DNA of 64,000 bases from Candidatus Rokuibacteriota bacterium (GTDB lineage: Bacteria > Methylomirabilota > Methylomirabilia > Rokubacteriales > CSP1-6). Shown here piece by piece: positions 33,001-42,000 of the stretch. The stretch is from positions 1,618 to 65,617 of the forward strand of contig JACPCX010000178.1 in the NCBI GenBank assembly GCA_016184305.1. The letters are read 5' to 3'. Positions within the stretch are counted from its first letter, which is position 1. Each line of letters begins with the position of its first letter. The position numbers were made by a program.

Positions 33001-36000
33001 CCTCCACCGCCATGAAGACCGAGTTGGCGCGCAGGAGGCGGGCCGGCCGGCCGTCCACGCGGGCTTCCCACCACGGGTGCCGGTGGATGCCCAGGATCAC
33101 GTGGGCCGGGGTGTCCGCCTGGACATGGAGGCGCACCTCCTCGCCCCTCGGGATCTCCACCTGCGTTACCCGCCCCGACTGACGGCTCTCCCGCGGCAGC
33201 CCGTCCGCGTTCAGCACCCCCAGCGTCCGCTTCCCGTACTCCGGGCAGCCCCCCTCGGAGAAGGCGCCGAGCGTGTCCTCGGTCCAGACGATCCGCTCCG
33301 GCACGTGGAAGCGAGGCAGCGCCCGGTTGAGCCGGTAGAGCCGGAAGCCGTCCTGCTGGGCGAGGAGCGTCGCGTGGGCGTCGAAGTAGCCGCGGCAGCC
33401 TTGGGGATCGGAGTAGACGAGATCCAGGTTGTCGGCGCTCTCGAGGGAGAAGGCCTGCGCCGCGTACCAGAGGTCGCGGAAGAAGACCGCCAGCAGGACG
33501 AGCGGTGCGGCGAGGAGGACGAAGTCGAGGGCGCGCGTCCCGGCGGAGGCCTCCCGGCCGGCGGCAGCGTCCGGGGCCGGCGCCTCGATGGGGCTCACGC
33601 CCCGATGATAGCCGCAGCCCCTGCCCGGCCCCGCCGCAATTCGCCCGCCGTCACCGCGCCATCTTGGGGTCCAGCGGATCGCGCAGCCCGCCCCCCGGGA
33701 CGTTGAGCCCGAGCACGGTCACGGCGATGGTGCCCCCCGGGAAGATGGCGAACCACGGATCCATCCCGAGGAAGGCCTGGGCCTCGCGCAGCATGAGCCC
33801 CCAGGACGGGTGCGGCGGCTGGGTGCCGAGCCCGAGAGAGGCGAGCCCGGCCTCGGCAAGGATGGCGACGGGGAAGCTGAGGATGTCCGCCGGCGCGTTC
33901 TATCCTCCTAAGCCGTGCCGCCCCCATCGACCCCGACGATGGACCCGTTGACGAAGGAGGCGCGCTCGGAACACATGAAGGCGACGGCGGCGGCGACTTC
34001 ATCCGCCTCGCCGATGCGACCCAGCGGTATGGAACGAATCGCGCGCGCCTGGGTCTCGCCGGCGGCGCCGGACTGGAGCAGCGCGCGCTCCGCGAGGATG
34101 GTCTGCCAGCGGGTCGTCGCGATCGGGCCAGGATTGATGCCGTTGACCAGGACCTGATGGGGGCCCAGCTCGCGCGCCAGTGCCCGGGTCAAATTGATCA
34201 GGGCGGCATTGATGGCGCCGCCGGCCAGGTAGGTCGGCTCGGGCTGCACCCCGGTGCGTCCGATGATGTTGACGATGCGTCCCCAGCGTCGCGCGATCAT
34301 GCCCGGCGCGAAGTGCCTGATGACCCGCAGATAGCCCATCAGCTTGAGGTCGAACGCGGCCTTCCAGATCGCCTCGTCGTCGGCATGCAGGTCGCCGCTG
34401 CCCGTGCTGCCCGCATTGTTGATGACGATGTCCACCGTTCCCATCGCCGCGGACACTTCGCCCAGCAGCTGCGCGAGGCCGGGGCCGCCGACGTCGCCTG
34501 CCAGAGGGACGACGCGCACCGGGTAACGGCCCGTCAATTCATCGGCCAAGGCCCGCAGGGCCGGGGCTCCGCGCGCGACCAGCGCAAGATGGACGCCCGC
34601 CCCGGCAAGCTCCTCCGCAATCGCGCGGCCGATGCCCTTGCTGGCGCCGGTGACGACGGCCGTGCGCCCGGCGATGCCGAGATTCACACCAACCCCTTTT
34701 GCCGCGACATCACGCGCGCCGCGACCATGAAGGGGAAGGAAGCGGCCACCATCAGGATGCCATAGGCCGCGACATGTCCCATCTTGCCGGCGTCCCATTC
34801 CTGGAACAGCATGATGGTCATGACCTGCGAGCCCGGCGAGGACAACATGACCGGCAGGCTGAACTGGCGCACGAACACGATGAACAGCAGCGACCATGCC
34901 GCGACCAGGCCGGGAATCACCAGGGGCAGGACGATGCGCCGTATGGTCGCGAGCATGGTGCCGCCCGCCACATAGGACGCTTCCTCCAGTTCGCGGTGCA
35001 CCTGCATGAGGTTGCTGTTGATGTTGCGGATGCTGTACGGCATGAACTTGATGCTGAACGCAAGCAGCATGATCCAGATGGTGTTGTAGATGGGCGAATT
35101 GATGAACGTGGAGATCACGCCGATGGCCAGCACCGACCCGGGGAAGGCAAAGGGCAGGAAGGCGATGTAATCGAGCAGGCCGCGCCCCTCGACGTCGGTG
35201 CGCGTGCAGACGTAGGAGATGACGAAGCCGACAGCGACCGCCAGGCTTGCCCCACCCAGCGCGATGATGGCGGTATTGGTAATGGCGCGGCGCGACTCCG
35301 AATCGCTGAAAATCCAGCTGTAGTTGCCCAGGGTCGCATCGGGCCTGAGCGCGAAGGGCCAGGTGATCGCATCGACCGAGATCGCCATCAGGAGCAGCAC
35401 CGGCATGACGCCGATGATGGCGATGATGGTGTAGAAGCTGATGCAGGCGACCCAGCGGTAGCGGCCGATGTCGAGCGTGCCCAAGCGGTAGGCCTTGCCG
35501 GTGATCGCCACGAAACGCCGGTCGTCGGCGGTGACTGTGCGGTAGAGCCGGACCAGCAGCAATGCGGCGACCAGCGCGAACACGCCATAGACGGCAGCCC
35601 CGCCGATGTCGGAGGGATAGCTATAGCGCGTCAGGAGAAACACCTCGATGCTGAGGATGTAGATCTTGGCCGGATAGCCCAGGAACCAGGCGACGTCGAA
35701 ACTCTCCAGCCCGATGATGAACAGAATGGTAGCGACCGACACGACCGTGGGCATCATGCGCGGCAGGGTGATCTTGCGAAAGGTCCGAAAGGCGCCCGCG
35801 CCCGCCGCGGCCGAGGCCTCCTCGAGCACCGGATCGACGGACGAGAGCGAGGCGTAAAAAAAGATGAAGGCCAGCGGAAAGGTGTACAAGGCCTCGACGA
35901 ACACCATGCCGGCGAAGGAATAGATGTTGAACACGCTCGTGTTGAAGATGGGCGCCAGCGCCGTGTTGATGATGCCATTGCTCGGCGATAGCAGCAGGAT

Positions 36001-39000: not shown

Positions 39001-42000
39001 TTCGTTCGAGAACCACTCGAGCATGCCCGGATGGGTGCCCGGCGGGAAGCGCGTCACGGTATTGACCGCGTTCGACCAGCCGCGCACGCCCAGGGCCTGC
39101 AGCGCATCCTGCCAGGTCGGATAGCCGACCGTGAAGGTCTTGCGCGTTTCCGCGCTGATGATCAGCGGCGCGGCGAACAGCGACAGGGTACGGACCCGTT
39201 CCGGATGCATGCCCGCGAAGTACATGCCGATGATGCCGCCCAGCGACTCCCCCGCGTAATGAACGCGATCCAGCCCGAGGTAATCGAGGATGGTCACCAG
39301 GTCGCGGATATAGTTCTCGGCCGTGATGCGCGCTTCGGGATCCTTCATGTCGTAGTGCTCGCCCAGGCCGCGCAAGGTCGGGCACAGCACCTTATAGAAG
39401 CGCGCAAGGTAGGGGATCATGTTGTACCAGAAGCGCCCCGAACGCCCGAAGCCGTGCTGCAGGATCAGCGTGGGGGCGTTCTTCCACGGGTCGGTGTAGT
39501 CGTGCAGCTCGTAATAAAGCGGAATCCCGTCGTGCGATGCGACCGTAGGCATTGCTGATGTCCCCTCTCATGAACCGCCGCAACGCCCTTGCTGATCGAC
39601 GAACTCGAGACCGGCAATCGCTTGCTTCGGTATTATTCCCTATAGAAAACGCTCGTCGCGTTACCGCGGACTATACACAGCGGCTCGCGGCAATGTCAAC
39701 ACAGGAGCCTGGGAGTTGGCCGACGAGGGCAGGGCCCGCGCATCCGACGGTGGAGACGGCCGGGAGACGAGAAACTCCCGCGAGGGCGCCCACGGCGCCG
39801 CGGATGACCCGGGTGAATCCCCATCGAGCGGGCTCAGCCCGAGGCGATGCGGGGCCGCAGGCCGGCCAGGCGCGTGCGGGCGGTGACCAGGCCGACGACG
39901 CTCTCGGCCTCCTCGCTGATGCGCAGCACGAGGCGCCCCGCATGCGTGAGGATCCGCCCCGCGAGCGTGAACACCCCGAAGCGCCGCCGCTTGGGCCGCG
40001 CCGCGCTCAGGGGGGCCGGCAGCGCCAGTGCCTTCAGCGCGCTCAGCCCGTTGTCGGTCAGCGGGCTCAGCCGATACCACGCCGCGTCGGCCCCAAAGCC
40101 CCCGCATGGCGGCACGGCCGCTCCCCGCTCGTTCCTCGTCACGTCATGCACCAACTCGATCGTCCCCGCCTTCTGCCAGTGCCAGCGGACCAGCTCGGCC
40201 AGGCCCCCTTTCGACCAGCGCGACGTTCACTCGCCCCAGCCCCTGCCGCGCCGCGTGCTCCGCGGGACTGCCCGCCACCTCCGTGGGCGCCCGCTGCGCC
40301 TGCGCGGCCTCGATGCGCGTCGGGTCGTGGAACGCGTAGAGAAACTGCCGGAGCCTGTCCGCCCACCTCGACCCCTCGGGCGCCGCCGAGCCTCCCGGCC
40401 CGGCCCCACCCGCCCCCATCGCGATCGGCTCGCCCCGCCACTTCCCCCCGCTCCCCACGCTCGCCGGTGCCCCACTCAGACCCCACGGCCGCTCCTTGAT
40501 CGCGCGCCGCTGACGGGCGCAGGATGGCCTGCGATCACAGGGCTCTCGGGGCGGGCGACGCTCGCCTTCCCCCCTCCGATGCCCGCATTCCCGGGTGCCA
40601 GCCCGGGGCTCGCAGGGCAGGCCGCATCCCGGCCCCCCGGGTCGCGCGGCGAGGGAGCCGAGGGAGCAGCGTTTGTCCGTCCTATGCCCCATGTGGAGAA
40701 GAAAAGCCTTCAGTCGCAGAACCGCAAACGCGAAGTCATCCGGGCCACGCTGAACGGCGAGGAGTCGTTCGTGGAGGCGCTGACGTGGGAGGAGATTGGG
40801 GAGTTGTTCGCGGAGTGAGCGAGGGCGGCCTTGAAGGGGTGAGGGGTTGAAGCGTCTCGGTGCGGGGTGTCGCGTCCACACATCGCGAACCGGATTTCCC
40901 CCTTGACAGCCCCGGCTTGCGGCCCGTTAGAGTGCGTCGATGGGAACAAGTGCGAAGGAACCGAAGCGGGGTTGGGGCCTGTGCCAGCGCCGCGAGTGTC
41001 TGGTCCTGACCTGGCGCGGGCGGTTCCTGCTTCTGGTGTTGGGCACGAGCCTGGCTTTCGGCGCGGCCAGAGGCGTGAGTCCATTTCTGGCGGTGAACGA
41101 TCCGGTCGTGGGCGGGGCGCTGGTAGTGGAGGGCTGGGCGCCGGACTATGCCCTGGCGGAAGCGATGGCCGAGTTCAAACGAAACCCCTACACCAGGCTG
41201 TACGTGACCGGAGGCCCCATTGAGAAAGGGGCGCCCTTGTCAGAGTACAAGACGTTCGCCGAATTTGGGGCGGCCACCCTGATTCGGATGGGGATGGCCT
41301 CCAACCTGGTCCAGGCGGTGCCCGCGCCGCCGGTGCGCCAGGACCGGACCTATGCTTCGGCAGTGGCGTTGAGGAACTGGCTGCGCGAGCACGGCGCGGC
41401 GCCGCAGGACTGCCACGTCCTGTCCGTCGGGCCCCATGCGCGCCGGACCCGGCTCATGTTTGAGAAGGCACTGGGTGGAACCACGCGCGTCGGCATCACC
41501 TCGATCGAAAGCCCGGACCACGATCCGAAGCGTTGGTGGAGAACCAGCGCCGGGGTGCGGACGGTGCTCGGTGAGGCCATCGCCTACGTTTACGCGCGGT
41601 TGTTCTTCTGGCCGCCGCGGCCGTAGCCTGTGCGCGCGAACAGAAACCTGACAAGCCGGAGAGGCTCTTCGAGGAGGCCCGTCGCCACGGGCCTTTCGCC
41701 GGCCGCTGGCCCCGGGCCGTGAGGGCGCGACGCGCGATCCGAGCCACCTTGATCCTGAGCCCCATCGCCTCGCAGAGGCGCGCCGCTGCCTCCGCGGTCC
41801 CCTCGGTGCCCCGATCTCCCTGGCTATCCGGAGCCTGGAGCGCCCACGACTCTCGCAACCGCGAGACCCGCGACGCCGCCGCGCGCGAAGGGCTGTCTCG
41901 AGCATCGAGGAGACCAGCCCCTCGATCCGCGACACCGTGAAGGTCCACGACGCGGGGTGGCTTGAGACCGGGAGGAAGGTCGACAGCTCGGTGGACCGCG

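Follow-up and report, generated by a model that had tools for sequence, protein, structure and literature searches.

Relics of dppB and dppC beside insertion-sequence debris at the border of a surface-glycan gene island in Candidatus Rokubacteria

The window analysed here, a stretch of 64,000 nucleotides from contig JACPCX010000178.1 (assembly GCA_016184305.1), belongs to a metagenome-assembled genome of Candidatus Rokubacteria (Methylomirabilota). Besides an intact dpp-like transporter operon (dppA-dppB-dppC, 52293-55827, minus strand, delimited with Pfam and tblastn), it contains two short, decayed pieces of the same genes, a fragment of dppB (hereafter b') and a fragment comprising the 3' end of dppC (hereafter c'), separated by DNA that carries remnants of insertion sequences (IS). 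We favour, as the probable though by no means certain origin of this arrangement, a partial dppB-dppC duplication whose spare copy was destroyed by IS1380- and IS91-family-linked insertions and by deletions. Given the guanine-plus-cytosine (GC) content of about 70%, genuine genes were chosen by their third-position GC; annotation relied on Pfam and NCBIfam, and repeats were found by self-comparison of the window. The coordinates of the features are collected in Table 1.

The self-comparison, which a preliminary description of this locus had recommended, returned three repeats touching the interval first reported (266 bp, 56 bp and 74 nt). The longest aligns c' with the end of the intact dppC at 91.7% identity over 266 ungapped bp (E 7e-107); it runs from dppC codon 205 through codon 280 and the stop codon into about 36 bp of the 3' flank, in agreement with the ~90% match, stop codon included, that had been noticed from the start. 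Codons 1-204 are gone and the permease domain is incomplete (PF00528 aligns over profile positions 115-183 of 184 alone, with 21.2 bits vs a cut-off of 26.4), which leaves c' outside what defines a functional DppC-type permease. Its start codon is not conserved: NCBI called an internal ATG, and a mutational GTG is found in a 98.3%-identical strain represented by a MEGAHIT contig of another study (L010). The 47-aa "hypothetical protein" HYU42_13725 (P0052) annotated by NCBI inside c' is the C-terminal relic of dppC.

The origin of c' was examined in an alignment of the relic, the intact copy and the orthologues of six related species (L011-L016, retrieved with dppC from species-representative genomes), in which the intact dppC shares 77-89% amino acid identity with its orthologues. 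Of all the sequences compared, c' and the intact dppC end are nearest to each other (91.7% nucleotide identity vs 68-76% to the six other species), and the ~36-bp 3' flank is common to these two copies only. They differ by 22 mismatches, 14 of which lie in coding sequence, and half of these 14 are non-synonymous; all seven replacements (Y>S, N>D, A>T, L>V, L>P, D>G and L>P) are derived changes of c', with no such change in the intact dppC, and each affects a residue that is invariant across the six species. Selective constraint has been relaxed on c' only and not on the intact dppC, and c' drifts as dead DNA. A closest relative in its own genome and a relaxation of constraint confined to the truncated copy are the two marks of a recent-duplicate relic, and c' bears both. 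Five c'-specific substitutions are packed into 11 bp, and through them the conserved 'LLGD' codons now nearly reproduce the motif CCCGGGGGGC, located 42 bp from this cluster (the two sites being window 33690-33705 and 33732-33747); the cluster suggests that one templated (quasi-repeat) event, and not five separate mutations, produced it. A diversity-generating retroelement, with a template and a variable repeat at the 3' end of a gene, was considered and rejected, the 22 mismatches showing no adenine bias.

The second relic, b', matches dppB codons 40-57 at 53 of 56 positions (E 2e-18), so that the near match of ~60 bp initially described proves real. The proposal that its flanks still translate to a DppB-like peptide had to be abandoned: they show no similarity as DNA or in any reading frame, and a tblastn search for DppB around b' at E<=10 recovers codons 40-57 only, the homology ending sharply on both sides. 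As for c', the nearest sequence is the dppB of the same genome, other species being far more different over the same segment. A 96%-identical strain from a different sequencing run (L175) carries the same 56-bp piece with identical edges and has one of the b' changes in common, and the majority of the c'-specific changes are also present in L010; both relics are therefore older than the split of these strains. Their polarity was described correctly, since b' and c' both lie on the minus strand in the order dppB then dppC, and their coding divergence from the parents is alike (5.4% and 6.1%). The sequence between them had been estimated at about 7.9 kb in place of ~1.7 kb of permease sequence; the first figure stands (7,875 bp, 33881-41755) and the second is reduced to 1,378 bp (52523-53900). 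Similarly, the low-GC module, the IS1380-family fragment and the DUF218 gene listed for this interior do lie inside it, and the second transposase fragment and the second copy of the 74-nt repeat lie beyond the dppB piece.

These comparisons also bear on the identity of the lost operon, which had been read as a third dpp paralog, an independent operon once present here whose place an 8-kb transposon had taken. Two dpp-type operons are indeed found in the window, Rokubacteria are rich in such paralogs, and more distant metagenomic loci sharing ApbA have another dppBC paralog adjacent. However, the relics are 92-95% identical at the nucleotide level to the adjacent operon, vs <=76% for the other species; the true paralog operon of the window, at 56.6-60 kb, reaches only 41-45% amino acid identity and true paralogs stand at 40-47%. 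Moreover, no other dpp remnant occurs in 33-43 kb, neither dppA nor the 5' end of dppB is represented by any relic, and the relic's downstream flank is that of the ancestral single operon. A third paralog is thus highly improbable. What holds in the idea of a transposon- or recombination-mediated replacement is that the relics are true ones and that foreign-looking DNA, IS fragments included, has taken the place of their interior. The alignments instead indicate a lineage-specific duplication, with relics drawn from the distal part of the same operon.

Comparison with syntenic loci, also advised at the outset, was run on the same six species. All of them contain the divergent second dpp operon (partial in L016) and then epimerase-dppA-dppB-dppC, as at the intact copy. 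Downstream of dppC, the same-strand content consists of variable glycan genes that are different in every species: GT4 glycosyltransferases in L011, sulfate-activation genes in L016, a YfhO at +5.5 kb from dppC in L014 and, in L013, a fatty-acid desaturase, a 697-aa YfhO-like open reading frame (ORF; +1 kb) and a UDP-GlcNAc 2-epimerase (+6 kb) that is 70% identical to window 30169-31341. In the window itself, the yfhO-like gene next to c' is followed by a methyltransferase gene and then by the UDP-GlcNAc 2-epimerase, and a gene cluster for surface-glycan biosynthesis occupies 5-33 kb (flippase, MptE-like, HisF-like, epimerases and YfhO). PMT_2, 2-oxoacid:ferredoxin oxidoreductase (POR), Mo-oxidoreductase and the SDR operon are found downstream of dppC in none of the six species, from which the native-GC block of the window is missing at this place. 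The intact operon has therefore retained the ancestral upstream flank, and c' the ancestral downstream flank (yfhO, epimerase). Judged against this ancestral arrangement, the extra DNA is 33881-52256, that is ~18.4 kb and not just 7.9 kb, and this stretch is bracketed by the 266-bp direct repeat. Reading from the working operon towards the relics, the order is dppC, native-GC block, copy 2 of the 74-nt repeat, IS91-family fragment, FKBP fragment and b', followed along the minus strand by DUF218, repeat copy 1, IS1380-family fragment, low-GC operon, c' and the yfhO-like gene.

The possibility of a chimeric assembly join across the 266-bp repeat had been raised as well. It could be suspected from the NCBI sister contig, which begins ~140 bp from the repeat, and from the Logan contigs (k=31), which break within the longest identical run of the repeat. 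Nevertheless, both junctions recur with the same breakpoints in independent assemblies of strains that are 96-99.9% identical. A contig that is 99.86% identical to the window (L005; GCA_016192485.1, contig JACPUB010000164.1) is colinear with window 34565-54623 and thereby spans dppB-dppC-PMT_2 to the SDR operon, and Logan contigs of three sequencing runs (L002-L004) cover 40541-42444 at 100%. Two further Logan contigs enter c' at 100% identity, from the SDR side (L008) and from the yfhO side (L009), and carry relic-specific variants up to the break; the 26-bp gap between them lies in a long run that is identical between the copies, where a k=31 graph must branch. Finally, L010 holds the SDR 3' end, the whole relic and the yfhO start in one contig from a separate study, with the same truncation point. 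An artefact of assembly is consequently extremely improbable.

Under the favoured duplication, the ancestor would have had a single epimerase-dppA-dppB-dppC operon running directly into yfhO and the surface-glycan cluster. We infer one duplication behind both relics because they share their parent, orientation and order and have diverged to a similar extent. The duplicated segment would comprise at least dppB codon 40 to the dppC end, plus the first ~60 yfhO codons judging from sister strains, and thus probably reached into yfhO. The copy joined to the upstream part of the operon would be the working dppBC at 52.3-54.1 kb; the copy joined to yfhO would have become redundant and have tolerated, as a landing pad, IS insertions and their cargo. 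Subsequent deletions would have stripped out the 1,378 bp of the permease genes and the greater part of the two IS elements, so that 56 bp from dppB and 266 bp from dppC persist as the drifting residue of the spare copy. These relics have no function. The duplication could have arisen by two routes: a circular intermediate with dppBC-yfhO' homology might have integrated (Campbell-type), producing the flanking duplication in one step, or a tandem duplication might have been followed by insertion at its junction.

The extension into yfhO is illustrated by contigs of three further assemblies (L172-L174), which are 93-98% identical to the dppC end of the window. Their dppC stop overlaps the yfhO start, and the dppC-yfhO adjacency is therefore native. 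In these contigs the intact dppC is followed by a yfhO 5' fragment of ~65 codons that is joined to window 50287, just beyond the final oxidoreductase gene; the complete PMT_2 gene of the window (50288-52256) is missing there and the yfhO fragment fills the same slot. Such a fragment is to be expected if it belongs to the left-hand copy of a repeat that at first extended from dppB into yfhO, and the shared 50287 breakpoint suggests a cassette-like exchange of GT-C glycosyltransferase genes. The sequence of L171 diverges ~40 bp past the dppC stop. In the window, the yfhO-like gene has a large in-frame internal deletion after codon 62 (junction ~33413) which fuses codons 1-62 to the ~183 last codons, so that most of the gene is gone as judged vs the YfhO profile (835 positions) and the full-length homologues of L013 and L014 (695-697 aa). 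The same deletion is seen in L009, a different internal deletion is present in another strain (P0122), and L010 continues with a normal YfhO N-terminus past codon 62. The dppC/yfhO border is a rearrangement hotspot among close strains.

Several observations weigh against the duplication that we favour. No longer, less decayed second copy was found in any strain or relative, and a search with YfhO homologues for an 'empty site' or for such a copy gave two hits only, informative on the strain variants. The former contiguity of b' and c' is deduced solely from their shared origin, orientation, order and similar divergence, and for orientation and order alone the chance expectation is ~1 in 4. The yfhO fragment of L172-L174 is only 84% identical to the window yfhO, with its first ~20 codons unaligned, and could reflect allelic exchange rather than an extended left repeat. 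In addition, the ~10-kb native-GC block demands an extra insertion at the duplication junction or an unexplained circular intermediate. As regards the IS elements, inverted repeats and target duplications could not be defined, no oriIS or terIS ends were recognised, and there is no second IS copy in the ~2 Mb of related loci.

Among known systems, the icd/icdC arrangement around the cryptic prophage e14 in E. coli K-12 (Hill et al. 1989; PMC13626634) is the closest structural look-alike for the dppC repeat. In both cases the working gene stands at one block end and a C-terminal pseudogene copy at the other, beside native downstream DNA, and the direct repeats could recombine and delete the block. 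By analogy, the ~18.4-kb block could be what is left of an integrative element that inserted near dppC codon 205 and, by bringing its own dppC 3' end, kept dppC intact; c' would then be the displaced chromosomal 3' end and the 56-bp dppB piece unrelated debris. Such an island would account for the 3' end of the target gene being duplicated at both block ends (33615-33880 and 52257-52522), for the position of c' beside yfhO with pseudogene drift and for a block that is not in other species. We nevertheless consider it unlikely, as no integrase, recombinase, phage or conjugation gene was found in 33.9-52.3 kb (Pfam), no tRNA occurs in the window, the block is mainly of native GC with housekeeping-type genes, and a 95%-identical dppB fragment in matching orientation and order would be left unexplained. 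Compared with e14, the locus differs by its lack of integrase and phage genes, by a content made mostly of housekeeping-type genes and IS debris, by a second relic (dppB) inside the block, by a repeat diverged by ~8% and by inactivating drift in the relic. A structured RNA or tRNA attachment site was rejected too, since Rfam gave no match at E<=0.1 in 32.5-43 kb and the window is devoid of tRNA. It is rather improbable that an island without integrase targets and restores the dppC 3' end and that the 18.4-kb block is what remains of it. According to this proposal, a fixed junction downstream of dppC would swap GT-C cassettes bounded by the dppC stop region and 50287, and the dppC repeat would be, if this were true, a recombination handle for the gain and loss of surface-glycan and metabolic modules.

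Both transposase genes are reduced to fragments. Concerning the first, a complete IS1380-family element would have a DDE transposase of ~419 aa and terminal inverted repeats; here the match is limited to the ~100 last codons (44 bits vs a full-length cut-off of 180), the frames upstream give no match, and the low-GC operon lies directly downstream of the transposase 3' end on the same strand. The IS91-family fragment has no Pfam or NCBIfam match of its own and was recognised by its homologues: 431 sequences of a representative library match at E<=1e-3, aligning to match residues 1-53, and blastx gives 82% identity to residues 1-56 of P0243. Seven of ten longer homologues scanned have PF14319 (Zn_Tnp_IS91), one of them with PF04986 (Y2_Tnp) as well. 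A full IS91-family element (rolling-circle, HUH Y2) would include these Zn-binding and Y2_Tnp domains; the reading frame found here is cut exactly at the start of repeat copy 2, just before the Zn-binding domain. A tblastn search of both fragments against plasmids gave no match. In L175, the segment 1-134, left of window 40867 and upstream of the DUF218 promoter, differs from the window and has a weak resemblance (blastx E 3e-5) to an interior portion of an IS91-family transposase, and an IS91 element may formerly have run unbroken through this stretch.

Reportedly, the DNA that ISCR/IS91 elements co-mobilise lies on the side of their transposase start. ISEcp1 is a member of the IS1380 family. 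One-ended transposition that takes neighbouring DNA with it is typified by IS91/ISCR elements and by ISEcp1 (PMC3575428), and the positions of the low-GC operon, after the IS1380 end, and of the FKBP fragment and b', before the IS91 start, are compatible with this process. The resemblance to ISEcp1 transposition units lies in the five-gene operon placed immediately downstream of an IS1380-family transposase 3' end on the same strand, and the difference in that only the last ~100 transposase codons persist, with neither inverted repeats nor 5-bp target duplications identified. In class 1 integrons linked to ISCR1, an IS91-family element and captured DNA likewise lie between partial copies of a segment; the accepted model for the duplicated 3'-conserved segment (3'-CS) around ISCR1 is rolling-circle one-ended transposition, then homologous recombination of a circular intermediate (Toleman et al. 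2006; PMC3575428). At our locus, by contrast, the transposase is represented by 53 codons, oriIS and terIS are not recognised, the cargo does not consist of resistance genes, the host belongs to an uncultured soil and groundwater phylum, and the mechanism is a proposed one.

Such elements could also have brought the dppB and/or dppC pieces as baggage, captured elsewhere and delivered by one-ended transposition of an IS91/IS1380-family element. Indeed, b' and the FKBP fragment, both sharp-edged, are situated just upstream of the IS91-family transposase start, on the side from which these elements co-mobilise DNA (PMC3575428). However, c' is joined to the native yfhO via the shared 3' flank, matching the adjacency in L172-L174 and the synteny of L013 and L014, and is therefore in place and not carried in; b' has the orientation and order expected for a piece of the same copy. 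We judge this origin to be unlikely. More generally, the locus shows no essential difference from ordinary gene relics at the edges of variable surface-glycan islands, which is the general category of this finding: it is ordinary genome decay and no new kind of system, and it combines duplication with overwriting linked to IS elements and with decay, at the margin of a variable glycan island.

Table 1. Position, strand and supporting evidence of the features described in the window
Feature	Position	Strand	Evidence or relation
c', dppC 3'-end relic (pseudogene fragment)	33615..33880	-	parent segment 52257-52522
b', 56-bp dppB relic	41756..41811	-	parent segment 53901-53956
Intact dppC-like permease	52293..53135	-	PF00528, E 7e-34
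Intact dppB-like permease	53128..54072	-	PF00528 + PF19300
dppA-like solute-binding protein (start approximate)	54097..55600	-	PF00496 (SBP_bac_5), E 3e-88
NAD-epimerase gene, preceding dppA	55608-56570
yfhO-like gene, 245 aa	32861..33598	-	profile C-terminus match only, 763-835/835
Low-GC five-gene operon (GC 0.61-0.68 vs 0.70-0.75)	33908..39552	-	Pfam; boundaries agree with L005 gene calls
SDR	33908-34687	-	Pfam
Fused double permease	34684-36375	-	Pfam
ABC ATPase	36372-37487	-	Pfam
Solute-binding protein (SBP)	37560-38702	-	Pfam
Alpha/beta hydrolase	38704-39552	-	Pfam
IS1380-family transposase, C-terminal fragment	39834..40226	-	NCBIfam NF033539 positions 322-418/419, E 1.1e-11
74-nt direct repeat, copy 1	40567..40640	+	85% to copy 2
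DUF218 (YdcF/ElyC/SanA-like) gene	40940..41626	+	PF02698, slightly under threshold
FKBP-type isomerase fragment, ~33 residues	41937..42040	+	PF00254, E 0.004
IS91-family transposase, N-terminal 53 codons	42107..42265	+	homologue alignment
74-nt direct repeat, copy 2	42263..42336	+	85% to copy 1
Native-GC block	42403..52228	+	Pfam; antisense to dpp operon
Mo-oxidoreductase (frameshifted in window)	42403-44502	+	Pfam
ApbA	44542-45597	+	Pfam
Four POR genes	45619-50163	+	Pfam
PMT_2 glycosyltransferase	50378-52228	+	Pfam

These results have consequences at three levels. For annotation, HYU42_13725, the 245-aa yfhO-like ORF and the split Mo-oxidoreductase are relic or damaged genes. For assembly, a 266-bp repeat of 92% identity breaks short-read assemblies of the population without being a misjoin. 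For biology, the locus is a small case, with a date to it, of how genome structure turns over in an uncultured phylum where a transporter operon meets a variable surface-glycan island, with duplication, IS1380- and IS91-family debris and strain-specific deletions as its components.

The 74-nt repeat is GC-rich and its two copies bracket 1.6 kb (40641-42262) that enclose a 44-codon ORF, DUF218, b', the FKBP fragment and the IS91-family fragment. No further copy exists in the window and the near-identical sister contigs, nor in the ~2 Mb of related loci; with two copies only, a genome-wide repetitive extragenic palindrome (REP) or miniature inverted-repeat transposable element (MITE) was rejected. 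A composite transposon was rejected as well, since the IS fragments come from different families and are both truncated, and the sole bracketing repeat spans 40641-42262 and not the 7.9 kb. The best non-self homologues of the DUF218 protein are ~65% identical and the few named ones belong to other phyla; the gene is probably foreign. Just upstream of and across its start, 53-57 bp near 40891-40943 are present in the window and not in L005, which changes the predicted DUF218 N-terminus relative to L005. The FKBP fragment has an additional weak match to NCBIfam NF008602 (positions 124-156 of 206, E 1e-4). In the low-GC operon, a 45-bp indel in the ABC ATPase gene (window 36657-36677) splits this gene in L005 and leaves it intact in the window.

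ATPase genes are missing from the working dppABC operon, a layout that is the same in L011-L016, and the ATPases may be provided by the divergent second dpp operon (56.6-62+ kb). The working operon terminates at dppC, convergent with PMT_2. Within the native-GC block, the window is devoid of 32 bp at ~43359-43361 that are present in three independent assemblies (L005, L006 and L091), and this frameshifts the gene for a 699-aa molybdopterin oxidoreductase; either the gene is a pseudogene in this strain or the assembly is locally wrong. Mo-oxidoreductase-ApbA-POR-PMT_2 was rejected as a conserved block, ApbA having other neighbours in all 44 of the 44 longer metagenome loci. In eight loci (L144, L145, L147, L158 and L163-L166), a different dppBC paralog (44-49% amino acid identity) lies divergently upstream of an ApbA that is ~71-73% identical; in closer relatives, ApbA has other neighbours.

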